DNA from: Actinomycetes bacterium | Lineage (GTDB): Bacteria > Actinomycetota > Acidimicrobiia > Acidimicrobiales > Ilumatobacteraceae | DNA length: 64,000 nt | Assembly: GCA_031415695.1 (NCBI GenBank) | Contig: JANOSH010000001.1 | Location: forward strand, 43,988 to 107,987 | Direction: 5' to 3' | The notes under the pieces: model-generated | The model's database searches: none | Seen by the model: only the letters and a program-made list of their open reading frames with translations | What the model was told of the DNA's origin: nothing | Shown: piece by piece, positions 35,400 to 47,596 of the stretch | Position numbering within the stretch: position 1 is the stretch's first letter | Layout: the number at the start of each line of letters is the position of its first letter | Translations under genes and position numbers: made by a program

Positions 35400-35470
35400 G
35401 CGAAGCTCACACGTGAGCAGGCCGATAGGCCGTGGTGCCGAAGGCGCAGGGTGAGCGAAGCTCACACGTG
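35395..35470. repeat. Two copies of a 21-bp palindrome-containing element GGTGAGCGAAGCTCACACGTG (hairpin GTGAGC-GAA-GCTCAC), 54 bp apart
   Basis: Exact direct repeat at 35395-35415 and 35449-35469. The first copy overlaps the stop codon of the cNMP-binding gene. It marks the left edge of the accessory island. Confidence 0.8.
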
Positions 35471-35532
35471 TGAATTGTAAAGATGTCGTATGCTCACTCT
35501 CCGACCAGGCGCGGGGAGTAGACGGGACGTCA

Positions 35533-36963
35533 ATGGCAAAGGGGCTCGAGAATCCGATTCTGAACTCGCCCTACGACGCGCCCGCGGCCCATTTCGAGGT
35601 CGAGCCGGGCGTCGGCCCCACCGGCGTCGTTGTCAGCGGTAGGCGGGCGAGCGAGTCGTTTATCCCCATCCCGTTGGCCCGAAAAGGCAAAGGGGCGCAG
35701 GCCAAACTGGCGTTCGATGGGGCCGAGCGCCGTGAGGTGAACCCGCTCATCAACGACGTCCGCCAGGCGGTCGACCTGTGGCGGGCTCTGGGCTATCCGG
35801 GCGTCACGACGATCTCGCGCAAGCTGCTGCAGCACTGGGCCGACCCGACCCGTGAGAACCGGGTGTTGTTCTGCCAACGTGAGGCGGCCGAGACGGCGAT
35901 CTTCCTGGCCGAAGCGGCGGGTCGCAACGGCAACCCCGACTTTCGGCCCCGGCTTGGTGAGGCCAACCTGCTGCACAACGACGGGCTGCCACGTGTCGGG
36001 TTGAAGATGGCCACTGGTAGCGGCAAGACGGTGGTGATGGCGATGCTGATTGCGTGGCAGACCATCAACAAGGTGTATGCCGGTCAGGGGCCCGACGAGG
36101 CTGACGTAGCTGCACCGGCGATTGGTGACACGGTCTCATTCGAGCAGACCATTCTCGACAACCTCGCCAAGGCCGGCATCCAGAACGGGCGCAAGAACGA
36201 GCGGTTCACGTTTGAATCGGTTGAGCCGTACGCCGGTCGGCACATCCAGGCCGTCGCCGTTCGGTCCGACGCCCCCGAGGGTGCGCCCAAGCGGGTGGCT
36301 ATCTGTGTGGGGCCGCAGTAGGGCACGGTTGGTGGTGGGTTCATCAAGGACGCCACCAAGGAAGCAATCGTCGATTCCGAAGTTGATCTGCTTGCCGTGC
36401 TGGCGTTCGCGTTCGACCCGAACGCGGTAGGGCAGTCCGACGGGCTGAACGTGTCCGACGAAGGGTTCGCCAACGTCGACGCCGAACGAAAGATCGGACG
36501 TATGCCGGTGCTGCTGGTACGCATGAACAACGACCTACTCATGGGTGAGGATCTGAAGAAGACCGGTAGCGGCAACCTGTTCACCGTGTTTGGTGAACCC
36601 GACATCGAAGTGCGCCAACTCGACGGCGGAATGGTCGAGGTTGAGGTTCTCGGGGTTGACGTGTACGACCCGACCACCGGCGAGGTACGCAGCCGAGACG
36701 TCGACCACATTGCGTTGTGGATGATCGATACCAACTACAACGAGGAATCGTTCTTCGTGCGTCACTGCTACTTCACCGGCGGTAACGACCCCTACAAACG
36801 CCTCAAGACCGCGTTGAAAGCCGACATCGACGAAGAAGCTTGGGCCAGCCTCTACCGCACCGTCAGCCGACCGTTCCCGTCACCCGAGACCGGCAAGCTA
36901 GCCATCAAGGTCATCAACGACTACGGCGACGAAGTCGTCAAAGTGGTGCAGGTTGCGCCATGA
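35533..36963 (+). pseudogene. Degraded Type III-like restriction-modification remnant: helicase/Res-like N-terminus fused in frame (with an internal TAG) to an adenine-methyltransferase (Mod-like) C-terminal domain
   Basis: The N-terminal piece has ENPILNSPYDAPAAHFE and the helicase motif I KMATGSGKTVVMAMLIAW. It ends at the TAG at 36319-36321. The same frame continues directly into a C-terminal piece (WMIDTNYNEESFFVRHCYFTGGNDPYKRLKTALKADIDEEAW...KLAIKVINDYGDEVVKV) that resembles MTase C-terminal domains. The total is ~490 aa, far too short for either a Res (~900-1000 aa) or a Mod (~600 aa). Confidence 0.5.
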
Positions 36964-36989: not shown

Positions 36990-37695
36990 CTATCTGTCGG
37001 TAGCGGAGTCGATTCTGGTGATGAGCTGCCGAACAGCCGCAGCAGCGTGGGCAACGTCGGTGACGTGGAAGCCGATGTCGTCGGCCATGGCCCGGTAGCC
37101 GGCATGCCATGGTTCAGGGATTGTGACCGTCGGGGGCCACGCATGTTTCGCCCGACCGGCGAATACCTCGATACACGCGAGCCGGGCATCGCGCCATCCA
37201 TTGTCGCTGACCAGTTCGCCGAGTAGCTGGAGGTCGAGAAGGTCTCTGAATCGATCGTTCACTCTATCGACGGGCTGTTCGGTGCACGCGTGGAGTTTCT
37301 GGGCAATCTGCCAGCGAACCGCAATGCATGCCACGGTCGTCGGTCCCTCGATGCCAACATGTGCCAGCGATAGCGCTGGTACATGATCCACGTCGTCACC
37401 CATGCTGGCCTCGACGCTGGCGATTTCGAATGGCACGGTCACGACGGGCTTGTTCCGGTAGGCGATTTTGATCTCGCAGCGCCGGGTCGAGGTGTTCGGC
37501 AAGATCGGCGGTGTCGGCTCGCAGAGCGGTGTCGAAGTCTTTCGTCGCTCGTGCCGAACCTCGGGTACGCAGTTCCATTGCGACACCGCCCTTGACGAGA
37601 AAGAGCGGCTGACCTTGATGGCTGTCTCGGGCAGAGTCCAAGATTGCCGCTGCGTTACGCGGTGCAGCATCGTGAATGGGCGAGGCCTCGGTCAT
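36990..37695 (-). pseudogene. AbiEii-family nucleotidyltransferase toxin (type IV TA), frameshifted
   Basis: The N-terminal 99-aa ORF (37396-37695) carries LFLVKGGVAMELR...TKDFDT, the AbiEii NTase motif. The remaining ~190 aa lie in a different frame (36990-37670), so a frameshift is implied near 37400-37500. Confidence 0.6.
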
Positions 37696-38261
37696 GATGT
37701 GACCTCCGCTAAGCGAGACATTTCGTCGCCAATGAGGAGACCGCGTCGTTGCGCCCCGTCGATCGCTTGGCGGATCAGTCGATCATCGAGGTGACGCTCG
37801 ATGCCGTCGAGAATCGCTCGCAGCGGTGTAACTGCAGGAATGCCGTCGACGTTGGTGACGTCGCCCACCTCGAGGTTGCGAACGTGCACGGCATACGACG
37901 GCGGGACCTGGCGACGGACTCGGGCGGTCCTTGGGACGGTGACGTGAATCTTGGTCGGGTTGACATCGCACAGATCCCACAGGTCGAGGGCGGAGTCGTG
38001 CGAGATCACACCCAACCTGTCGGGCCACAACGTGGCCGCCATCAACTCGTCGCGGTCGGTCGGAGGGAACGACTTGAATCGGTACAGCCCTCGGCACACT
38101 CGACTGAGGTGACCGTGGCGTTCCATATCAACGAGCACCTGATTGCGCGCCCCGATTCCCGCTGTGTCGTGGGGGGTCACGTAGCCATACTGATCCGCCG
38201 CGATGTCGAACAGTGCTGCGTACCATTTCCCGGGCATGCCAAAAGTATGGAGGAAATCCAT
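37692..38261 (-). CDS. AbiEi-family antitoxin/transcriptional regulator (type IV TA)
   Basis: N-terminal wHTH YVTPHDTAGIGARNQVLVDMERHGHLSRVCRGLYRF, typical of AbiEi. It overlaps the start of the AbiEii ORF by 4 nt. The start was moved to MDFLHTFG, because the ORF-track N-terminal 82 aa are Ser/Thr/Arg-rich and implausible. Confidence 0.65.
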   Translation of the reverse strand: MDFLHTFGMPGKWYAALFDIAADQYGYVTPHDTAGIGARNQVLVDMERHGHLSRVCRGLYRFKSFPPTDRDELMAATLWPDRLGVISHDSALDLWDLCDVNPTKIHVTVPRTARVRRQVPPSYAVHVRNLEVGDVTNVDGIPAVTPLRAILDGIERHLDDRLIRQAIDGAQRRGLLIGDEMSRLAEVTS

Positions 38262-38517: not shown

Positions 38518-38806
38518 CTAGGCGGCTCCTCGTCGACACCGGTGTCCTCTGGTCGTTCGTCGTTTCCAACTCCTTGTGATGCCTGGTGCGTTAGCGAGGC
38601 GGGTGTCGGTCGTGAGCAGCGCTGTCGCGCCGATCATCTCGGTCAGCGCGACATAGGTGGCGTCGTAGGCGCTGAGATTGTGCCGCAGTGCCCACATTCT
38701 TGGTCGGAGCCAGTCGGCCGGGAAACGGGCCAGGGTAAGGCGGGTGAAGCCGACGAGCGCGGTTGGCGACGAGTTCGACGATGACGCTGGCATCGAGAAC
38801 TTTCAA
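38518..38806 (-). pseudogene. VapC-like PIN-domain toxin, frameshifted
   Basis: A TTG start overlaps the antitoxin stop (TTGA at 38803-38806) and gives LKVLDASVIVELVANRA, a PIN N-terminus with the first catalytic Asp. The C-terminal PIN region (YDATYVALTEMIGATALLTTD) is in another frame (38518-38793). A ~1-bp indel is therefore implied near 38740-38760. Confidence 0.6.
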
Positions 38807-39045
38807 TTGTTGCGTCCTTCGTGCAAGGCGGCGAGGATGGTTTCGCGATCGACGCGACCTCGAACGCTCGCCTGGGTTTCGCGGATTACCGCAGCGTTGT
38901 CGTGCGCTCTTTGAGCGCGCTTGGCCAGATGTTCGAGTTCGCGCAACACGTACCGAGTAAGGGAGAGGCCCTGCGCCTCGGCCGCGCCGGCTAGGGCGTG
39001 GTGCACGTCGTCGGGCACGTCTCGGACCTGGATCACCTTGGGCAT
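38803..39045 (-). CDS. VapB-like antitoxin (ribbon-helix-helix type)
   Basis: MPKVIQVRDVPDDVHHALAGAAEAQGLSLTRYVLRELE shows an RHH-like pattern. It lies immediately upstream of the PIN gene and overlaps it. Confidence 0.6.
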   Translation of the reverse strand: MPKVIQVRDVPDDVHHALAGAAEAQGLSLTRYVLRELEHLAKRAQRAHDNAAVIRETQASVRGRVDRETILAALHEGRNN

Positions 39046-39220
39046 GGTCGCCGCAATACCTCTCATGGGTGCACACTGCACCCACATTTCGAGATTGGTG
39101 CTTTTCGGGCCTTCGCCGAGCTCGACTACAAGGCCATTGTCGACGAGATTGCTGAGTGAACGTCGGAGCCGCGGTGCGGCCCTGAGCACGTTTGCGGCAC
39201 GCCCAGATTTGCCACGCTAC

Positions 39221-42200
39221 CTAGCGCCAGAGTCGGGTGCCGGCCGATGCGACGGCGACCGCAGCGGGGATGGCGAGGGCGATGACCACGGCCCGCCAGT
39301 CGTGCATCCAGCGGGCGGCATCGACCCAGCGATGGCTCTGCAGCCCGTAGCGAACCACCGCCCCGATGGCCAGCCACCCAAGGGCGGCGATGACGCCGGT
39401 GCGCAACAACTGCGGCGCGTTGGCGCGCCACCGTGCCGCGGCGATGGCGAATGCAGCGATCATCAACGCCGCCCCTACGTAGTGCACTAGTGGTTTCCAC
39501 GACGGGGTGTCGGGGTTGAGGAACAGCGTGGTGGCGTCGTTGGCGTCGATGGATGCGACCACCACCAGTGCGAGGGCCAGACCGACCGAACCGAGGGCCC
39601 GCCGCCAGCCGACAACGAGCGCTACCAGCGCCACGAAACCGGCCAACAGGTACATGCCGATGACCAATGGACCCGTGGGAATATTGGCTCCCAGCAGCCG
39701 AGCGGTAACCAGCGCGCCGCCGACGGCGAGCAGCGTCATCATGATGCCGGTGGCGGTGCGGGTGCCGCGCAGCATGCTGTCGAGCAGCACATACACCCAG
39801 GCCAGCGCGCGACGAACCACCGCGAACGCGGCGCGCACCGGGGCCACCGAGTTGCTCTTGCCGGCCAGCACTCCCGACGCGACCGCCGCAACGCCCAGCC
39901 CCGTGCGCGACAGTGCGTCGGACCCGATCTCCTCGCCTACCGTTTCGCCGCCTACCCGGCACGCTGCCACGAGACGGTCGACGGCAGCGACCGGCACCCG
40001 CCCAGCCGGTTCGCGAACGGCGGCCACTTGGCGGACAAATTCGAGCGCCTCTGGCACTGCGGAGGCGCCTTCGCGTTGGGATCGCTCGATAGCGTCGGCC
40101 ACGACGGGAAGTTCGTCGGCCGCGGCGAGGCGAACCAGCGCGCTGGCGACGAGTTGTAGAGTCCTGGGGAGCCGGGCAGGCAGGCGTCGCCGGTTGGCGC
40201 CGTCGAGGAACGCCAGCTCGTCGCCAATCGCTGCGATGATGTCGGCGACGTCGAGGCCGAGCCTCGGCTCAGATGCCAGCATTGTGGCCAAAGCGTCGAC
40301 GCATTCGCTCTGGCTGACGTAGCACTGACGCAGCCGGGCCGGGGTCACCAGCAACGCGGCGAGGTGGGTGGCGCCATCGAGCCGGCCCCACATCCAGTCG
40401 TTGGCCCTCCATGACGATTTGAGGAACCCGCCGAAATGCCCGAGGCTCAGGCCCCGCACCTTTTCGGTCGGGGTGCGGCCCGGGTCGATGGGACACACCG
40501 TCGTGGCTGCGACTTGCACGAAGGTGAGGCTGGGTCGTTCGCCGGGCTCGTCGTCGCTGATGTCCTGAATGACAAACAGTGCAAGTAGCCGGCGAATGAT
40601 GGCATGGTCGTCGTCGATGTGGGCGAGGTCGGCGGCGTCGGGGTTGCCGGTGGCGAGCGACGAAACCAGACGGGTGAGTATCCGGGTAGGTGGATTGGTG
40701 TCGTCGGTGTCGGCGAAGTTGCGCTGGTGGGCTTCGACGGCAGCAGCGCGCAGGTCGGGGAGGGCATCGCGCAGGGTGTGGACGATTTCGGTGAGTACTG
40801 GGGTGAGGTGCAATGCGGCGTCGCCGAGTTGGGCAAATGACTGGTCGGCCCATTCGGCGAGGCCCTCGTCGGGCACGCCGGCTTGTAGACGGACCGCCCA
40901 CCATTGCAGGTCGGTGTTGCGTGCCTCGGCGGATTGGGCTCGGCAGTCGTCGAGGCGGGCTCGGGCGATGGCGAGCCGCTGATCGAGAGCGCCTGGCGCC
41001 ACCAGGTCGAGGGCCCGCTGCACCATGTCGGCCACGGTGGCGGCCGCGGCTTCTACGGCACGGGCACCGTATCGCCAGGGGACATCGGTGGCGGCGGCGG
41101 TGGCCACGAGGAATTGGCCGTCGAGTAGGTCGGCGCGACCTCGGGCCATGCGAATGGCATTGGCGGCGCTGACCCACGACCGTGATTCGTTGGGGCCGAT
41201 CGGGTCGGCGAACGTGCGCCCGATACTGCGCAGGTGCGAGGCGACTATGGCGTCGGCGGAGGCGATGCCATCGCGTCGTAGCCAGATGGGATAGAGCTGG
41301 GTGGCGAGGTCGACGAGGTCGATTCGGGCTTCGGTGTCGCCGCCGGTCGACACGCCGAGCAGCAGCGACTCGCGCAGCCGTCGGCGCAGACCGAACTTGC
41401 GGTTGTACTCATCGATGATGGCCAGTTCCTCGGCCAGCGATTCGGCGCGAGGGAGCGAGAACAGCGACTTCGCAATGACCATGCCGAAACTGGGTGGGCT
41501 GTCGCGCACCGCAGCCGGTGGTTCGGGCGGGGTGCCGGGGTCGGGGTTGATGTACACCAGGATGCGGTCACCGGGCCGGTCGGAGCGGTGGCGGGCGATG
41601 AGTTCGAGGGCGGGGCCGACCGGCTTGTTGACCAGCACGCCACCGTCGACCGCCCACATCGATTGGCCAAACGAGGCGATGTCGATCATGTCGGGGTCGA
41701 CGGCATCGCCGGCTCCAACGCTGACGAACGACGGTTCAAAGGCACCGGGGAACGACGCGCTGGTACGGGCGGCACGGGCGAGTTGTCGGGCGGTGAGCGC
41801 CGCATCGGCGCCGCGCAGCCGTGCTCCGGTAAACGTGAACCGGGCGCGGTGACGGGGGTCGACGATGCGGTTGCCGGCTGCGTCGGTGGCGCGGGTGGGC
41901 ACTGGGTCGAGCGTCGAGGCGGTCATCACCAACTCGATGTCGGTTCGTCCGTCGGGTGCGGCGACGGCCGGTGCGGCCATCCACCTCGCTAGCACTTTGC
42001 CGGCCTCGGCCAGAAATACCTCGTCGCCCTTCAGCACCGAGGGCGGGTCTTTCGTGGCGGGGTTGCGCAGCAAATTGCTGAACGACCCGACCGACAGCCA
42101 CACGTCGCGTAACTCGTCGAACGCCGTGGCGGGCAGATCGCGGGTGGTGGCCGCAGCGAGGAACACCCCGTTCAAACCGCCGGCGCTTGCGCCCGTCATC

Positions 42201-42394
42201 ACGTCGATGACCACGGACGTGTCGACGAACTGTTCGAGCGCGCCATAGAGGCCTTCGCCTCGGGTGGCCCGATAAAACTCCGAGCTCACCCCGCCGATCC
42301 ACACGGCGAGGCTGACGCCGCCGTTCATGGCCAGCGCAACATTCAGGTCGCGAGCGGTTGGTGACATCCCTGCACCCCCAGTGGCGACACCCAT
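39221..42394 (-). CDS. Large patatin-like phospholipase with C-terminal polytopic membrane domain
   Basis: Patatin oxyanion motif ALAMNGGVSLAVWIGG and nucleophile elbow GASAG (MTGASAGGLNGVF). The catalytic Asp region is later in the protein. There is a ~600-aa middle region, and the C-terminal ~250 aa hold 6-8 TM helices. The start was moved to Met23 to avoid overlapping the divergent CHAT gene. Confidence 0.75.
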   Translation of the reverse strand: MGVATGGAGMSPTARDLNVALAMNGGVSLAVWIGGVSSEFYRATRGEGLYGALEQFVDTSVVIDVMTGASAGGLNGVFLAAATTRDLPATAFDELRDVWLSVGSFSNLLRNPATKDPPSVLKGDEVFLAEAGKVLARWMAAPAVAAPDGRTDIELVMTASTLDPVPTRATDAAGNRIVDPRHRARFTFTGARLRGADAALTARQLARAARTSASFPGAFEPSFVSVGAGDAVDPDMIDIASFGQSMWAVDGGVLVNKPVGPALELIARHRSDRPGDRILVYINPDPGTPPEPPAAVRDSPPSFGMVIAKSLFSLPRAESLAEELAIIDEYNRKFGLRRRLRESLLLGVSTGGDTEARIDLVDLATQLYPIWLRRDGIASADAIVASHLRSIGRTFADPIGPNESRSWVSAANAIRMARGRADLLDGQFLVATAAATDVPWRYGARAVEAAAATVADMVQRALDLVAPGALDQRLAIARARLDDCRAQSAEARNTDLQWWAVRLQAGVPDEGLAEWADQSFAQLGDAALHLTPVLTEIVHTLRDALPDLRAAAVEAHQRNFADTDDTNPPTRILTRLVSSLATGNPDAADLAHIDDDHAIIRRLLALFVIQDISDDEPGERPSLTFVQVAATTVCPIDPGRTPTEKVRGLSLGHFGGFLKSSWRANDWMWGRLDGATHLAALLVTPARLRQCYVSQSECVDALATMLASEPRLGLDVADIIAAIGDELAFLDGANRRRLPARLPRTLQLVASALVRLAAADELPVVADAIERSQREGASAVPEALEFVRQVAAVREPAGRVPVAAVDRLVAACRVGGETVGEEIGSDALSRTGLGVAAVASGVLAGKSNSVAPVRAAFAVVRRALAWVYVLLDSMLRGTRTATGIMMTLLAVGGALVTARLLGANIPTGPLVIGMYLLAGFVALVALVVGWRRALGSVGLALALVVVASIDANDATTLFLNPDTPSWKPLVHYVGAALMIAAFAIAAARWRANAPQLLRTGVIAALGWLAIGAVVRYGLQSHRWVDAARWMHDWRAVVIALAIPAAVAVASAGTRLWR

Positions 42395-42493
42395 CGCCAA
42401 GCTTACGACCGTAGCGTAGTTGTCGGCTTGGTCTTGACGAACTGCTCTGCAGGGGCTCAACTGACAGCAACGACGCTTTGGGTGGGGGCATCC

Positions 42494-45250
42494 ATGGGGG
42501 CATTATCTGTTCGGGCGGCAATCGACGGGCACTACGCACACGAGGCCGACACCGTGCTGCGCTGGGCGTGCTGGCCGCCTTATGACTCTGGCAGTGCTCG
42601 CGAATGGGCTCGGCGGGCCGATGCGGTGCACGAGCCGTTACCGGTCGTGTCATGCGACGACGTCACGGCCAGCGACGACAACAGCCCGGCTGCATCGGCC
42701 GCGTCGGGTGGATTGGGCGATCCTGCGTCGCTGCTGCGGCTCGGTATCGAACACCCCGGGTTGAGTTCGCGCCGGGCCAGCGAATTGCTTGGTCGACAGG
42801 TGGCCGCGCACTGTCCTATCGACGCGCGAGCGGTGGCGTGGGGGTGGCCGTTGCGGGTCACAGCGCTCGATTCGCATGTGCTCGGTGAATTGTCCAGCCT
42901 TCAGTCGTATCGCCAGCTGTATGACGTCGTCGAAGTCCCCGAGGTGCAGCACGAGCGCTACGACATCATGGTGGTCGACCCAGCGCAGGTCATGCAGATT
43001 CCGTCTCGCGTCTGGCCGACGGTGGTCGTGGTGCGCAGCACCGAGGTCGACCTGGCGTTGTTGGACCACGCGGTTGGGCAATTGGGGGCGGGTGCGGTGC
43101 TGTTCACCGGCCGACCGGTTGGCGACTGGTTCAGCGGGCTGATTGCCCAGTTGTCGCATGACAACCCGCTCGACGTGGCCCTCGCCATGTCCGAACTCGA
43201 CGCCGTGCTGTTCGCCGATTGGCGACAGCTGCAGATGACCTCGCTGCGAGTGCTCGTGCAGCGCTGGCGTCAGCAGGTATTCCTGTGGGATGGCACCGAT
43301 GTGACGGTGCCCGACCCCGGACAGGGGGTGCGATATTCCATGCCGACTGGTGCAACGGTGTCGGCACCGGAGTTCGCCGACGACCTGGTGCGCATCGCCA
43401 CCACCTACGCGTTCGAGATGGAGCGCGGGACCGGCACCACTGAAGCTAACGGGTCGCGGGCGTTGGAGGCAGCCGGGGTGGGGCGGATCGAGTTGGAGAT
43501 ACGGCTCGACCTGACGGCGTCGGCGGCAGGACCGCCGGAGGCGGAAGAACCGCCGCCACCACCCCCGCCCGCTGCGCCGACGGTGGTGCCAAGACCCACC
43601 GCGCCCACCGGGCAGCCGCCGGGCGGTCTACCCATGACGGGCCCCGGCCGGGGCGGCGAACCCGAGACGGTGGCCGCAGCCCGCTACCTCAACGTGTCGC
43701 CAGCAGCGCTCGACGCCGACGGTGCCGAACTCGATAACGAGGTCACCGCGTTCGTGGCCGGGGCCCCCTACCGCATCAGCGTGGCGGTGCGCGAGCGACG
43801 GGCCCGGGGTGCGCTGTCGCTGATGGCCGCCTTGCCCGAACCCACGCCGGGGCGGGCCACCACGCTCACCATCACGGTGTTTCAGCGCGGTCGCATCGAC
43901 ACCGCTCAAAGCAAACCGCTCGACCTGCCGGCCCGTGGCGATACCGGCTGGTGCACGTTCGATGTGGTGGCCCCGGTCGGCGCACAACAATTCGACTTGG
44001 TGGTGGTCGTCTATCACGACAACGCGTTGCAGGTGGGCGTCGTGTCGGGGCCCATCGTTGCGACCGCCGCCGACTTGCCCGCGGTTTTGGCGTGGACGTT
44101 CAACCTCGGGTCGGCCGGCGACTTCGGCGGCGGCAGCCCGACGCCGGCCATACTCGTCGACGATGCCGCCTTTGCCCGCCTCGATCTTGGCCCCGGCATG
44201 CTCAGCCCCACTGCGGTCACTGCCGGCAAGGCCCGGATGCGCCAGCGGATTCTTCAGGCGCTCGAGGCGGAAACGTCGAGACCCAAGCTGGCCAAGCTGT
44301 CGCCGGTGCTCGCCGATCTGGCCATCGACGGGCGGTTGATGCGCGATCAGTTGCTCGGTGCCGGGCCGTCGTCGTTCGATACTGCCGAACGCGTGCGGGT
44401 GGCCAGCATCGAGGCGGGCGACCCGCTGCCCCTCGAAGCGCTGTACGACCACGCTGCACCGGTCGACAATACCGTCAAGTTGTGTCAGCCGGCCCGTGAT
44501 GGTGCCGCCACCTGCACGTTGTCGTGCGCCGATCGCAACAACGCTCAGGTGGTGTGCCCGTTCGGGTTCTGGGGTATCAGCAAGTCCATCGAGCGGGTAC
44601 GAGCGCCGCGACCGGCGGCCGAGGCGCGTCCGATGGCCACCAGCTCGCTGGCCATCACGTCGTCGGCGCTCGTAGGCATTTGCGAGCGGGCCAGCAACAA
44701 GAACACGTCGGCGGCACGCAAGATCCTCAAAGCGTTTCGTGGGCTGGTGGGCCGGGCGAATCTCGATGACGTGTGGACGTGGGACGACTGGGACCGCGCC
44801 GTCGCCTCTTCGCCCAGGCTGTTGGCGCTGGTCACCCACACCGAGCAGGCCGATGGGCGTCCGGCGCTCGAAATTGGCCCGGGCGTGCTGCGCCCCATCC
44901 ATCAGGTAACCGCAGCGACCATCAACCCCACCGGGGCCAATCCCGGGCCGCTGGTGTTGTTGCTCGGTTGCGATACCGCGCATCTCGAAACCGCGTACAC
45001 CGATCTGGTCGACCGTATCCATGCAGTGGGCGCCGAGATAGTCGTAGCGGTGCAGACCCCGGTGCGCGGCGCGCAGGTGGCCGAACTGGTCGACGCTATG
45101 GTCGAGGCGTTACGCAACCAAGTGTCGGCACCCGGCACCAAACGGATGGGCGAAGTGTTGCGGGCCACCCGCCACCAGCTGCTGCTTGAGGGACGGATCG
45201 CCGGGCTGGCCGTGGTGTCGACTGGCGACGGGGGCATCGAACTGTCATGA
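42494..45250 (+). CDS. CHAT-domain (caspase-like) protease with large N-terminal domain of unknown function
   Basis: The C-terminal ~300 aa hold the caspase His/Cys dyad context: ALVTHTEQADG (His) and LVLLLGCDTAHLE (Cys, cf. CHAT LSACxTA). A Pro-rich linker (EAEEPPPPPPPAAPTVVPRPTAPTGQPPGG) is mid-protein. Nothing is recognisable in the first ~450 aa. The start was moved to Met23. Confidence 0.65.
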   Translation: MGALSVRAAIDGHYAHEADTVLRWACWPPYDSGSAREWARRADAVHEPLPVVSCDDVTASDDNSPAASAASGGLGDPASLLRLGIEHPGLSSRRASELLGRQVAAHCPIDARAVAWGWPLRVTALDSHVLGELSSLQSYRQLYDVVEVPEVQHERYDIMVVDPAQVMQIPSRVWPTVVVVRSTEVDLALLDHAVGQLGAGAVLFTGRPVGDWFSGLIAQLSHDNPLDVALAMSELDAVLFADWRQLQMTSLRVLVQRWRQQVFLWDGTDVTVPDPGQGVRYSMPTGATVSAPEFADDLVRIATTYAFEMERGTGTTEANGSRALEAAGVGRIELEIRLDLTASAAGPPEAEEPPPPPPPAAPTVVPRPTAPTGQPPGGLPMTGPGRGGEPETVAAARYLNVSPAALDADGAELDNEVTAFVAGAPYRISVAVRERRARGALSLMAALPEPTPGRATTLTITVFQRGRIDTAQSKPLDLPARGDTGWCTFDVVAPVGAQQFDLVVVVYHDNALQVGVVSGPIVATAADLPAVLAWTFNLGSAGDFGGGSPTPAILVDDAAFARLDLGPGMLSPTAVTAGKARMRQRILQALEAETSRPKLAKLSPVLADLAIDGRLMRDQLLGAGPSSFDTAERVRVASIEAGDPLPLEALYDHAAPVDNTVKLCQPARDGAATCTLSCADRNNAQVVCPFGFWGISKSIERVRAPRPAAEARPMATSSLAITSSALVGICERASNKNTSAARKILKAFRGLVGRANLDDVWTWDDWDRAVASSPRLLALVTHTEQADGRPALEIGPGVLRPIHQVTAATINPTGANPGPLVLLLGCDTAHLETAYTDLVDRIHAVGAEIVVAVQTPVRGAQVAELVDAMVEALRNQVSAPGTKRMGEVLRATRHQLLLEGRIAGLAVVSTGDGGIELS

Positions 45251-46350
45251 GCGGCGAATGGGTCGAACTCGAAGTGCTGCCCGGCGGCTACGGCGACGCC
45301 TTACTGTTGCGGTACGGCAACCGCACCGTCGAGCACACCATCCTCATCGACGCGGGGCCTGCCGAGGCCGCCACGTGGGTGCCGGTGTCGGCTCGCCTGC
45401 GGGCGCTCACCTCACCGATCGACCTGTTCGTCGTCACCCACATCGACGTCGATCACATCGCCGGAACCAAGGCGCTGCTGGCCGACGACGACTTGGCGGG
45501 GCGCATCAAGGCGGTGTGGTTCAACGGGTTCAAACACCTGGAACGGGCCGCCGATTGGCTGGGCGGCATCGACGGAGAGCTGTTCACCTCGGCCATCAGG
45601 TCCCGAGGCTATCCGTGGAACGCCGGATTCGCCGGGGCCATCGACAACCTGGTGGGCGGCCCCATACTTGTACCGGCAGCCGGCCCGCTGCCAAGGGTGC
45701 CGTTGCCGGGCGGGGCCACTGCGGTGCTGTTGTCGCCCAGCCCGAAAAAGCTCACCCGGTTGATCAAGTCGTGGCGCAAGGTGGTGGAGGATGCCGGGTT
45801 GAAACCGGGCCAGGGCGCGCACCTTGAATCGCCCCGCAAGCCGGTGGCCGACGACTGGCTGGGTGTCGCCAACCTCGCCCGAACCGCGGCCAAGGTAACG
45901 CCACGCGACACCAAACCGGCCAACGGTTCGAGCATCGCCTTCGCGTTCGAGTGGGGAGATTTCCGGGTGTTGATGGCCGCCGATGCTCACCCCGATCTGC
46001 TGACCACCAACCTGGCGCGGCTCGCCGCCGAGCACGGCGACACCCGGGTGCGGTTCGATGTCGTCAAGCTGCCCCACCACGGCAGCGCGTCGAATGTCAC
46101 CAACGACCTGCTCGCGCTCATCGAGTGTCGCGATTGGGTGATTTCCACCAACGGGGCCCGGTTCGGCCACCCCGACGACATCGCACTGGCCCGGGTGCTC
46201 ACCGCGTCACCGGGGTCGCGGCTGCACGCCAACGACAACTCCGAACGGATGCGGGCGTGGGCCAAGTTCGCGCCACCCCATGATCACGGTTACGAGCTGC
46301 GCACCCCGGCGGCCGGAACCGCCGGCTGCGTCATTCGCCTGGGGCCCTAG
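45247..46350 (+). CDS. Metallo-beta-lactamase-fold hydrolase (ComEC-type MBL, possible nuclease)
   Basis: HxHxDH motif VTHIDVDHIAG, later Asp, and VKLPHHGSASN (the PHHGS motif of ComEC-like MBLs). There is an ATGA overlap with the CHAT gene stop. Confidence 0.7.
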   Translation: MSGEWVELEVLPGGYGDALLLRYGNRTVEHTILIDAGPAEAATWVPVSARLRALTSPIDLFVVTHIDVDHIAGTKALLADDDLAGRIKAVWFNGFKHLERAADWLGGIDGELFTSAIRSRGYPWNAGFAGAIDNLVGGPILVPAAGPLPRVPLPGGATAVLLSPSPKKLTRLIKSWRKVVEDAGLKPGQGAHLESPRKPVADDWLGVANLARTAAKVTPRDTKPANGSSIAFAFEWGDFRVLMAADAHPDLLTTNLARLAAEHGDTRVRFDVVKLPHHGSASNVTNDLLALIECRDWVISTNGARFGHPDDIALARVLTASPGSRLHANDNSERMRAWAKFAPPHDHGYELRTPAAGTAGCVIRLGP

Positions 46351-46364
46351 CAGGAGAGTCAAGT

Positions 46365-46455
46365 GATCGCTCTGGAATAGGAACTCGACTTATTCTAGCA
46401 AAAGTCGAATTACTGGAATACACTAGGCCTGTAGCCCAGTCGACTGGAATAGCGA
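46365..46455. promoter_or_regulatory. AT-rich intergenic region with three direct copies of TCGA-N(0-3)-CTGGAATA and an imperfect palindrome (CTGGAATAGG...CTTATTCTAG) upstream of fic
   Basis: CTGGAATA occurs at 46372, 46413 and 46444 (spacing 41 and 31 bp). Local GC is ~45% against ~65% for the window. It lies immediately 5' of the fic start at 46457. Confidence 0.5.
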
Positions 46456-46456
46456 G

Positions 46457-47596
46457 ATGGTGAGCACCCGAGCCGAGCGGTATCAAGGTCAGGTCACCGG
46501 CTATCAGGCGTTCTTGCCGACCCCACTGCCCCCAGACCCACCGCTCAAGTGGACACCCGAACTGTTGAAAGCGCTCTCGAACGCCGACCGGGCCGTCGGC
46601 AGACTTGATGGACTCGCACGGGGCTTACCGAATCCCGACCTGTTCGTCGCGATGTACGTCCGACGCGAAGCGGTGCTCTCCTCCCAGATCGAGGGCACAC
46701 AGTCCAGCCTTGACGACATCTTGGCCTTCGAGGTGGATGCGCCGGGCATGATCCAACCAGCCGATATCACCGAGACCGTCAACTATGTCAGGGCGATGAA
46801 CACAGGCCTTCGCCTGCTGGACGAATTACCGCTGTCGGGTCGCCTCATCCGCGAAGTTCACAAGGAGCTCTTGACCGGAGTACGGGGTCAGGAACGACAC
46901 CCCGGCGAGTTCCGGCGAACACAGAACTGGATCGGCCCAGCCGGTTGCACGCTTGACACCGCCAGCTTCGTACCACCGCCACCAGGCGAACTGTCCGACT
47001 GTTTCGGCGCTTTGGAACGGTTCCTCCACGACCATGATCAACCACCTCTTGTGCTCGCTGGGTTGGCCCACGCCCAGTTCGAAACGATCCATCCGTTCCT
47101 CGACGGCAACGGTCGCGTTGGGCGTTTGCTAATCACACTGGTGCTGGTGGAACGCAATGTGCTCAGTCGACCGTTGCTCTACCTCAGCCTGTTCCTCAAA
47201 CAAAACCGCACCGAGTACTACGAGCGACTCAGCGCCGTGCGCTCGACCGGTGACTGGGAAGGTTGGCTGCGTTTCTTTCTCACCGGTGTCGAGGTCACCG
47301 CCAACGACGCAGTCAGCGTCGCTAGCGCCGTCGCCGAACTACGCGACCGTCATCTACGCCTCGCCGCGACGCAGAACGTTGGCCGGTACGGCGTGCCGAT
47401 GCTCGACCTGTTAGCGCAGCAACCGTTGGTCACCGTGAAGTACGCGGTCGAACATCTCGGTACGACATCCACGACGGTTGGTGCGCTCCTCGACCGGTAC
47501 GCTGCGCTCGGCGTTGTCGAGGAAGTAACCGGTCTGAAACGCAACCGGGTCTACCGCTACTCGCCATACCTCAACCTGTTCACCACTGGTCAATAG
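46457..47596 (+). CDS. fic: Fic/Doc-family protein (AMPylator-type) with C-terminal winged helix
   Basis: Canonical Fic motif HPFLDGNGRVGR. An N-terminal Fic_N-like region is present, and the C-terminal ~80 aa are wHTH-like. Confidence 0.9.
   Translation: MVSTRAERYQGQVTGYQAFLPTPLPPDPPLKWTPELLKALSNADRAVGRLDGLARGLPNPDLFVAMYVRREAVLSSQIEGTQSSLDDILAFEVDAPGMIQPADITETVNYVRAMNTGLRLLDELPLSGRLIREVHKELLTGVRGQERHPGEFRRTQNWIGPAGCTLDTASFVPPPPGELSDCFGALERFLHDHDQPPLVLAGLAHAQFETIHPFLDGNGRVGRLLITLVLVERNVLSRPLLYLSLFLKQNRTEYYERLSAVRSTGDWEGWLRFFLTGVEVTANDAVSVASAVAELRDRHLRLAATQNVGRYGVPMLDLLAQQPLVTVKYAVEHLGTTSTTVGALLDRYAALGVVEEVTGLKRNRVYRYSPYLNLFTTGQ

Follow-up and report, generated by a model that had tools for sequence, protein, structure and literature searches.

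Defense-associated proteins of the metallo-beta-lactamase (MBL) fold are, according to three recent reports (PMC12642450, PMC12799240 and bioRxiv 10.1101/2025.09.03.673762), auto-inhibited DNases that are released by two proteolytic cuts. Such protease-unlocked nucleases were shown experimentally in late 2025, and the single caspase-type example reported as tested is KaeCanABC of Klebsiella aerogenes (Science 2025; PMC12799240), a member of the caspase-nuclease ("canu") loci that the same work defines. As stated there, CanAB turns CanC into a DNase, the substitution G104K or G189K in CanC abolishes defense, and KaeCanABC is anti-phage by experiment, with escape mutations mapping to T4 dda. A caspase-associated MBL clade 2, equivalent to the canu group, is named in PMC12642450. 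Here we describe a related locus in a 64,000-nucleotide stretch of contig JANOSH010000001.1 from a member of the Ilumatobacteraceae; this whole stretch is referred to below as the window. Positions 42494-46350 of the window, which encode a CHAT-type protease and an MBL-fold protein, probably constitute a two-gene protease-activated nuclease module of the canu, or MBL clade 2, kind with a role in abortive infection.

A previous sequence-only reading had united these two genes with a divergent patatin-like phospholipase gene into a candidate three-gene defense module and had regarded the combination as undescribed. The three large enzymatic genes do lie together, and all three open reading frames (ORFs) are present and intact where that reading had placed them. 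The claim of novelty did not survive comparison: the CHAT-MBL pair fits canu (PMC12799240) and MBL clade 2 (PMC12642450), and the core of the finding is already described in kind, the locus being a CHAT-type variant of caspase-nuclease systems. The view of CHAT and MBL as a defense-type effector module is supported by the analyses below.

The CHAT-MBL pair is a conserved operon

Gene starts were adopted from the public calls on contig JAYSVO010000095.1 of a metagenome-assembled genome (GCA_043718545.1), which is the same contig as the window.

39221-42394, minus strand: patatin gene, 1057 aa; called ATG at 42394; full ORF 39221-42460, minus strand
42395-42493, no strand: divergent intergenic region between the patatin and CHAT genes, 99 bp
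42494-45250, plus strand: CHAT gene, 918 aa; called ATG at 42494; full ORF 42428-45250, plus strand; first gene of a two-gene operon
45247-46350, plus strand: MBL gene, 367 aa, predicted ComEC-like pro-nuclease of the MBL fold; start codon overlapping the stop codon of CHAT

The operon had been proposed from an ATGA stop/start overlap at 45247-45250, and this overlap was verified in the sequence; the two genes are thereby coupled in translation. The same arrangement recurs far beyond the window. A genome scan with a four-sequence CHAT alignment yielded 69 loci, which are distributed over at least seven phyla (Actinomycetota, Acidobacteriota, Pseudomonadota, Bacteroidota, Verrucomicrobiota, Gemmatimonadota and Chrysiogenota). 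In 66 of them the CHAT homologue is followed, at a distance of no more than tens of bases, by an MBL homologue, and the remaining three are truncated. The same linkage to CHAT is obtained when starting from MBL homologues, in Accumulibacter, a Mycobacterium and metagenomic contigs. The two proteins also diverge together: pairwise distances of the CHAT domain and of the MBL are correlated across 61 loci (Spearman rho 0.643, a value reached in 0 of 2000 Mantel permutations), and the published distance correlation for trypsin-MBL pairs is 0.677. No third conserved gene comparable to CanB was found in the family loci, lipases excepted.

The closest relative, locus L017, shares 76% amino-acid identity in the protease and 86% in the MBL. 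The DNA common to L017 and the window is limited to 42376-46343 (blastn, 79% nucleotide identity), that is, to the CHAT-MBL pair with about 118 bp upstream and nothing else; the block ends about 18 bases into the patatin gene. Judged from these sequence comparisons, the pair is a heritable unit, and the differing genomic context between close relatives indicates its mobility. Since the intergenic region is conserved with L017 in a block starting at 42376, positions 42395-42493 together with a few upstream bases are likely the promoter and ribosome-binding-site region of the CHAT-MBL operon. The spacer of about 100 bp over which the patatin gene was said to diverge measures 99 bp with the called starts. 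No sigma-70-like promoter was found in a scan of 42200-42700, which includes this spacer, and no terminator in a scan of 46200-46600, both scans being uninformative for a high-GC organism.

Some family loci carry further genes near the pair. BNR/Sortilin-Vps10 repeat proteins lie upstream of and divergent from it in four loci including L017 (L017:5159-8311 and L053:7170-9563, both on the minus strand). Two small same-strand ORFs without a Pfam match (L017:8736-9848) are located directly upstream of the CHAT gene of L017 and have no counterpart in the window. L084:4995-13583 contains, in this order, a patatin, a 615-aa protein without a Pfam match, a 466-aa MBL, CHAT and a second MBL, an arrangement which may be a tandem or duplicated system.

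The MBL protein as a putative nuclease with two predicted inhibitory loops

Three elements of the MBL gene are central to the proposed mechanism.

45439-45456, plus strand: metal-binding motif HIDVDH, MBL residues 65-70; coordinates verified
45553-45564, plus strand: predicted protease site 1, DWLG, MBL residues 103-106, in disordered insertion 1
45853-45864, plus strand: predicted protease site 2, DWLG, MBL residues 203-206, at the end of disordered insertion 2

The AlphaFold2 (AF2) model of the protein has a predicted local distance difference test score (pLDDT) of 89.3. Its top Foldseek match is the MBL domain of ComEC (9ic4, E 1e-13), which is also matched in a PDB sequence search, and the model resembles Pce and RNase J as well. 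H65, D69 and H70 are invariant among 118 homologues, the further metal ligands D246/H248, H277/H278 and H308 vary little or not at all, and a PHHGS motif is present. The HxHxDH-type motif, the His/Asp ligands and the fold are those of an MBL-fold (ComEC-like) nuclease.

The placement of this nuclease among defense MBLs was assessed against KaeCanA, KaeCanB, KaeCanC and three trypsin-type MBLs (HamM, Avs1a and LmuA-H), taken from Table S1. It is 31% identical to KaeCanC (150 bits, E 8e-47) and scores 89-112 bits with the trypsin-type MBLs; across the family, KaeCanC outscores HamM, Avs1a and LmuA-H for 68 of 69 MBLs. A neighbour-joining tree, crude and built with four reference sequences rather than being the published tree, places KaeCanC at the base of the clade that contains the window MBL. 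Among PADLOC models the protein matches MBL-type LmuA (9e-57), the reverse transcriptase-associated MBL RTasMBL (3e-39) and Avs1a (5e-34); with NCBIfam Avs1a it reaches 164 bits, the equivalog cut-off being 420. PADLOC-DB v2 (2023) has no model for the CHAT partner. Matches of the MBL alone to LmuA, Avs1a and RT-associated MBL models therefore carry a risk of mislabelling it as one of these.

The AF2 model contains exactly two low-confidence segments (pLDDT below 50), residues 102-106 and 187-200, and a DWLG tetrapeptide accompanies each of the two insertions. In the first, G106 is invariant and L105 nearly so among the 118 homologues, and G106 aligns with Gly104 of KaeCanC. In the second, the pattern xx[LIMV]G is found in 64 of 65 protease-linked MBLs. 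In 29 of these 65 proteins loop 1 and loop 2 carry one and the same tetrapeptide, of which nine different versions occur (GLLG, DLLG, DWLG, DILG, DALG, DTLG, PILG, GVLG and DVLG), and the observed similarity between loops 1 and 2 was reached by none of 5000 shuffled pairings. Such concerted change of the loop motifs is the outcome expected of a single protease reading both loops. By analogy with the described pro-nucleases, we infer that the CHAT protease cleaves the MBL in both of them. The MBL had previously been counted as an independent third enzyme; it is best read as the substrate of the protease, a pro-nuclease.

One MBL subclade departs from this pattern. In P0017, P0035 (L015:5861-9104, Mycobacterium sp. 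MMS18-G62) and L080, the loop-1 motif xVLG is kept and the Leu-Gly of loop 2 is absent; the partner of these MBLs is a shorter CHAT protein of 710 aa, in which most of the N-terminal domain is missing. In this subclade the second site or the regulation may accordingly differ.

The CHAT protein is a divergent clan-CD protease

The protease gene encodes the following parts, delimited in the AF2 model (pLDDT 84.4).

42731-43504, plus strand: N-terminal alpha/beta domain, residues 80-337, with motifs WxWPLR and LSHxxPLDxAL; from AF2 secondary structure and pLDDT
43508-43666, plus strand: Pro-rich disordered linker, residues 339-391, pLDDT below 50; sequence PPPPPPPAAPTVVPRPTAPTGQPP
43685-44185, plus strand: beta-sandwich (Ig-like) region, residues 398-564
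44390-45226, plus strand: catalytic caspase-like (CHAT) domain, residues 633-911
44483-44575, plus strand: Cys-rich segment, residues 664-694 (C664, C674/678, C688-P-x-G-F-W-G), just before the caspase-like domain
44837-44839, plus strand: His782, codon verified
44969-44971, plus strand: Cys826, codon verified

The model has five parts, including a helical hairpin between the beta-sandwich and the caspase-like domain. Its best Foldseek matches are Craspase TPR-CHAT (Csx29), separase, DdvA, SAVED-CHAT and gingipain, and caspases are matched as well. It should be noted that fold comparison alone succeeded here: PDB sequence searches with the protein alone and with a 121-sequence profile gave no match. 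Pfam CHAT (PF12770) is weak, with 19 bits on residues 756-898 against a gathering score of 24; it matches 8 of 55 relatives (best E 7e-7), and Peptidase_C25 matches two. On the modelled fold, the protease is best described as belonging to a divergent CHAT/separase-like family of clan CD. The presumed catalytic His and Cys are intact: H782 and C826 are invariant in the family (n = 121 sequences), as are C664, C688, F692 and W763. The Cys-rich CPxGFWG segment, invariant across the 121 homologues, might bind a metal or form a disulphide.

The impression that the protein is an orphan, given by word-indexed searches that returned three proteins with a single sequence or a four-sequence profile, was rejected. 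An exhaustive HMMER scan returned 1239 representative clusters at 50% identity, of which 1016 had E<=1e-10; the majority of members are 850-1000 aa long. The N-terminal domain (residues 80-337) has no Pfam match, and its WxWPLR and LSHxxPLDxAL motifs are retained in the family consensus; it is a candidate regulatory, sensor or pseudo-protease domain. Its interpretation as a duplicated pseudo-CHAT domain was discarded, the hhalign probability of internal duplication being 1.3%, which is not significant.

Proposed mechanism

What the sequences establish directly is that the pair forms an operon, retains its catalytic residues, carries twin disordered motifs and is co-inherited. By analogy with KaeCanC, from which cleavage, DNase activity and defense are all extrapolated, the pair would be an anti-virus suicide switch. 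The MBL would be an auto-inhibited pro-DNase held shut by its two loops. A cue derived from infection would act on the non-catalytic parts of the protease, namely the N-terminal alpha/beta domain and/or the Ig-like domain, and the protease would be switched on, likely by oligomerisation as in other protease-effector systems or alternatively, at a guess, by ligand-driven release. The activated CHAT domain would then cut the MBL at or beside Leu-Gly in both loops, the freed nuclease would degrade DNA indiscriminately, and the infected cell would die or arrest, resulting in abortive infection.

The patatin gene and lipases of related loci

The third gene of the sequence-only reading, which faces away from the CHAT gene, has the following features.

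39236-39757, minus strand: C-terminal six-transmembrane (6-TM) region of the patatin; six hydrophobic segments, residues 880-1053
41606-42334, minus strand: patatin domain (Pfam)
41645-41647, minus strand: Asp250 of the catalytic DGG motif
42185-42187, minus strand: Ser70 of the catalytic GASAG motif

The protein matches Pfam Patatin (E 1e-12) and DUF3376 and scores 364 bits with NCBIfam TIGR03607 (cut-off 262). It is a full member of TIGR03607 with an intact Ser/Asp catalytic dyad, and PADLOC gives no match for it.

Lipases do occur beside related CHAT genes. Of the 60 loci whose upstream sequence is long enough, 21 have a lipase next to CHAT or fused to it, 18 being short patatins and three Tle1-like (DUF2235) proteins.

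L021:7651-9276, L030:7423-8556, L044:790-1938, L064:6896-8008, L069:8393-9544, L075:7020-8357 and 12 further loci: short patatins
L067:7955-11020, plus strand: Tle1-CHAT fusion, one 1021-aa ORF; Tle1-like (DUF2235) domain at residues 5-274, E 8e-74
L052:7706-8824, plus strand: Tle1-like gene adjacent to the pair
L025:1734-2885, minus strand: Tle1-like gene divergent from the pair

In 18 of the 69 loci the pair is immediately preceded by one of these short patatins (336-541 aa; Pfam E 1e-8 to 4e-24), as in the Accumulibacter or Burkholderiaceae operons of L044 and L069. The patatins carry GGGxR, SVSGG and DGG motifs, some have TM helices, and they are mostly co-directional with CHAT at gaps of 0-54 bp, usually in one operon. 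Patatin is the commonest Pfam family among the 139 immediate neighbours, and divergent lipase-CHAT arrangements like that of the window are seen in L025, L026 and L038. Together with the window's 1057-aa patatin-DUF3376-TM protein, three lipase types are found beside the family. It is tempting to view the CHAT-MBL family as a protease hub that repeatedly recruits phospholipases, one caspase-like protease controlling both a DNase and a membrane lipase; this view is tentative, and we hold it to be less probable than its negation. Lipase partners or a dual-effector arrangement are not mentioned in the text of PMC12799240 and PMC12642450, the figures of which may depict such architecture. Cutting of the partner lipases at the MBL motif was considered and is not supported, since the cognate tetrapeptide occurs in 1 of 14 partner patatins. 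The linker of the L067 fusion contains EELG, which resembles the cognate MBL loop motif DELG.

These partners bear on the three-gene module. If the window patatin were a functional partner of the pair, for example a second, membrane-targeting effector controlled or processed by CHAT, the cell would be killed through DNA and membrane damage together. The recurrence of lipases beside the CHAT family, including one fusion and three divergent pairs, speaks for such a role, as does the deviant GC and GC3 (GC content at third codon positions) that the window patatin shares with the pair; a precedent is provided by a caspase-like protease that activates a lipase-like alpha/beta-hydrolase zymogen by double cleavage (PMC12642450). 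The window patatin is, however, of another family, and a hidden Markov model (HMM) of the partner patatins does not match it. The sequence-only reading had offered co-occurrence of homologues as a check; it links CHAT and MBL (66 of 69 loci) but leaves the patatin unlinked, with patatin homologues in 0 of the 69 CHAT loci and CHAT, MBL or Fic genes in 0 of 80 loci of the patatin's own family. That family is stand-alone, with no conserved neighbour across the 80 loci. The closest relative, L017, lacks the patatin, its shared DNA stopping just inside the gene, and no DWLG-like site is present in the window patatin. A functional three-gene system is on this evidence possible but doubtful, and the patatin as a conserved partner was rejected. 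The part of the three-gene proposal that stands is the conserved CHAT-MBL pair, with lipases beside it elsewhere and a common GC composition; the membership of the patatin is uncertain. Most likely the patatin is a membrane phospholipase in its own right whose gene came to lie next to the pair.

Genomic context and the case for defense

The surroundings of the three genes contain defense and toxin-antitoxin (TA) debris upstream and a Fic gene downstream.

35470-36321 and 36397-36963: split ResIII-like ORF, upstream debris
36990-37670: AbiEii, upstream debris
37692-38261: AbiEi, upstream debris
38518-38793: 91-aa ORF, PIN-like piece, upstream debris
38803-39189: ribbon-helix-helix (RHH) FitA-like antitoxin, upstream debris
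46457-47596, plus strand: Fic gene with Fic_N and Fic domains; PADLOC SoFic E 1e-117 over the full length

The description of the region as an island of restriction-modification, Abi and TA remnants next to fic therefore holds, the ResIII fragment, AbiEii/AbiEi, the RHH antitoxin and Fic all being present. Core genes border the island on both sides: DnaK/DnaJ precede it, and an Hdr-like gene and SNF2/SWIM follow. The absence of a recognisable sensor was likewise confirmed: among the called genes of the contig, no cyclase, STAND NTPase, CRISPR or gasdermin gene lies near the three genes. Fic is a separate SoFic-like gene and not part of the pair; it scores 166 bits with NCBIfam SoFic, below the cut-off of 550, its GC content is host-like, and it is never linked to CHAT-MBL among the 69 loci.

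The patatin, CHAT and MBL genes have in common a GC content of 0.68 (the patatin alone 0.688) and GC3 of 0.81-0.86; outside them, Fic has 0.615 and the flanks 0.59-0.64. A sharp compositional block thus comprises exactly these three genes (39221-46350) inside the 0.62-GC window. This suggests that the three-gene block was acquired from a higher-GC actinomycete, because the genome of the closest relative L017 has a GC content of 0.68.

Several points weigh against a protease-activated defense nuclease. Support for cleavage, DNase activity and phage defense is homology to a nuclease that is 31% identical. Sequence comparison detects no relation between the protease and CanA, and CanB is absent, so that the activation logic may differ from that of canu. 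One MBL subclade (e.g., P0017 and P0035) is without Leu-Gly in loop 2. Immediate neighbours in other genomes are mostly housekeeping genes, defense matches are sparse, and CHAT-MBL homologues were not found in the plasmid and phage collections searched; the defense-island signature is consequently weak outside the window, and the defense reading rests mainly on homology and on the window's own island.

The same context would suit a pair serving programmed cell death linked to stress or development, DNA turnover or toxin-like addiction, with a trigger other than phage, and so would the frequency of the family in environmental and filamentous taxa (Streptomyces, Accumulibacter, Acidobacteriota). 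Such a role is nevertheless improbable, given that the nearest characterised relative, KaeCanC, belongs to the proven anti-phage CanABC, that the window pair has AbiE, TA, restriction-enzyme remnants and SoFic-like genes around it, and that the varying context of close relatives indicates mobility. That the pair is a decaying, inactive remnant like the obvious fragments nearby (the split ResIII-like ORF at 35470-36963, the 91-aa PIN-like piece) is very improbable indeed, as neither ORF is shortened relative to its homologues, the invariant catalytic and metal-binding residues and both loop motifs have all been kept, and 11 contigs from several samples carry an identical MBL protein.

If the locus is indeed a defense module, it extends a mechanism with few tested examples to a large family, with more than 1,000 clusters at 50% identity and at least seven phyla, in which the partner of this kind of pro-nuclease is a separase/CHAT-like protease distinct from CanA. 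The twin xxLG tetrapeptides provide a ready prediction of protease specificity, their concerted change between lineages makes substrate recognition directly testable, and recognition is possibly re-programmable. The recurrent lipase partners and the fusion hint at more than one death effector per protease, which, if true, would parallel eukaryotic caspase cascades.

Comparison with known systems

Membership in AVAST, Lamassu, DRT or CBASS was rejected: STAND, SMC/LmuB, helicase and cyclase partners are lacking and scores are below cut-offs. The window patatin resembles CapV of CBASS in being a phospholipase that could act on membranes; it differs in having no cyclase among the called genes nearby, nor any other conserved neighbour in its family, and in its length of about 1,000 aa with a 6-TM C-terminus. 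Craspase, in which the TPR-CHAT protein Csx29 cleaves Csx30, and SAVED-CHAT systems share the protease fold, whereas the window has no CRISPR, gRAMP, SAVED or cyclic-nucleotide component. The presumed substrate in the window is a nuclease zymogen and not a sigma-factor regulator as in Craspase, and the non-catalytic domains are unrelated.

In the LcCaspase/alpha-beta-hydrolase pair (PMC12642450), double cleavage by a caspase-like protease switches on a lipase-like hydrolase, which sets a precedent for the lipases seen beside the CHAT family; the LcCaspase pair involves another hydrolase family, Arg-Gly cut sites and no MBL. The trypsin-MBL modules (HamMAB of Hachiman, Avs1/Avs2 of AVAST, LmuA-H of Lamassu and DRT UG9) are closer in that they contain a homologous MBL pro-nuclease, need both inhibitory loops to be cut and lead to abortive infection. 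Their protease, however, is a trypsin-like serine protease fused to a sensor (HamA, STAND, LmuA or RT), their MBL gene lies upstream of the protease gene, and their cleavage motifs differ (e.g., KSS), whereas the partner in the window is a cysteine protease without a recognised sensor.

The closest counterpart is canu. In the window and in 66 of 69 loci a protease gene is followed by an MBL gene. The window MBL also resembles CanC in its two disordered insertions, both of which contain a conserved Gly; the protease comes with an Ig-like domain, and the presumed logic is that of a protease unlocking a DNase. On the other hand, CanA is a 390-aa MALT1-like paracaspase, whereas the window protease, CHAT/separase-like and 918 aa long, has an additional domain at its N-terminus; neither sequence nor profile comparison detected homology between the two, and no CanA or CanB homologue was found in the window or the 69 loci. 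The window MBL family further differs in its identical twin xxLG tetrapeptides and in the lipases that are frequent partners of its CHAT family. Because the MBL is nearest to CanC and the protease shows no detectable relation to CanA, the module is by analogy one that works like canu, with a protease of a different clan-CD family and without CanB.

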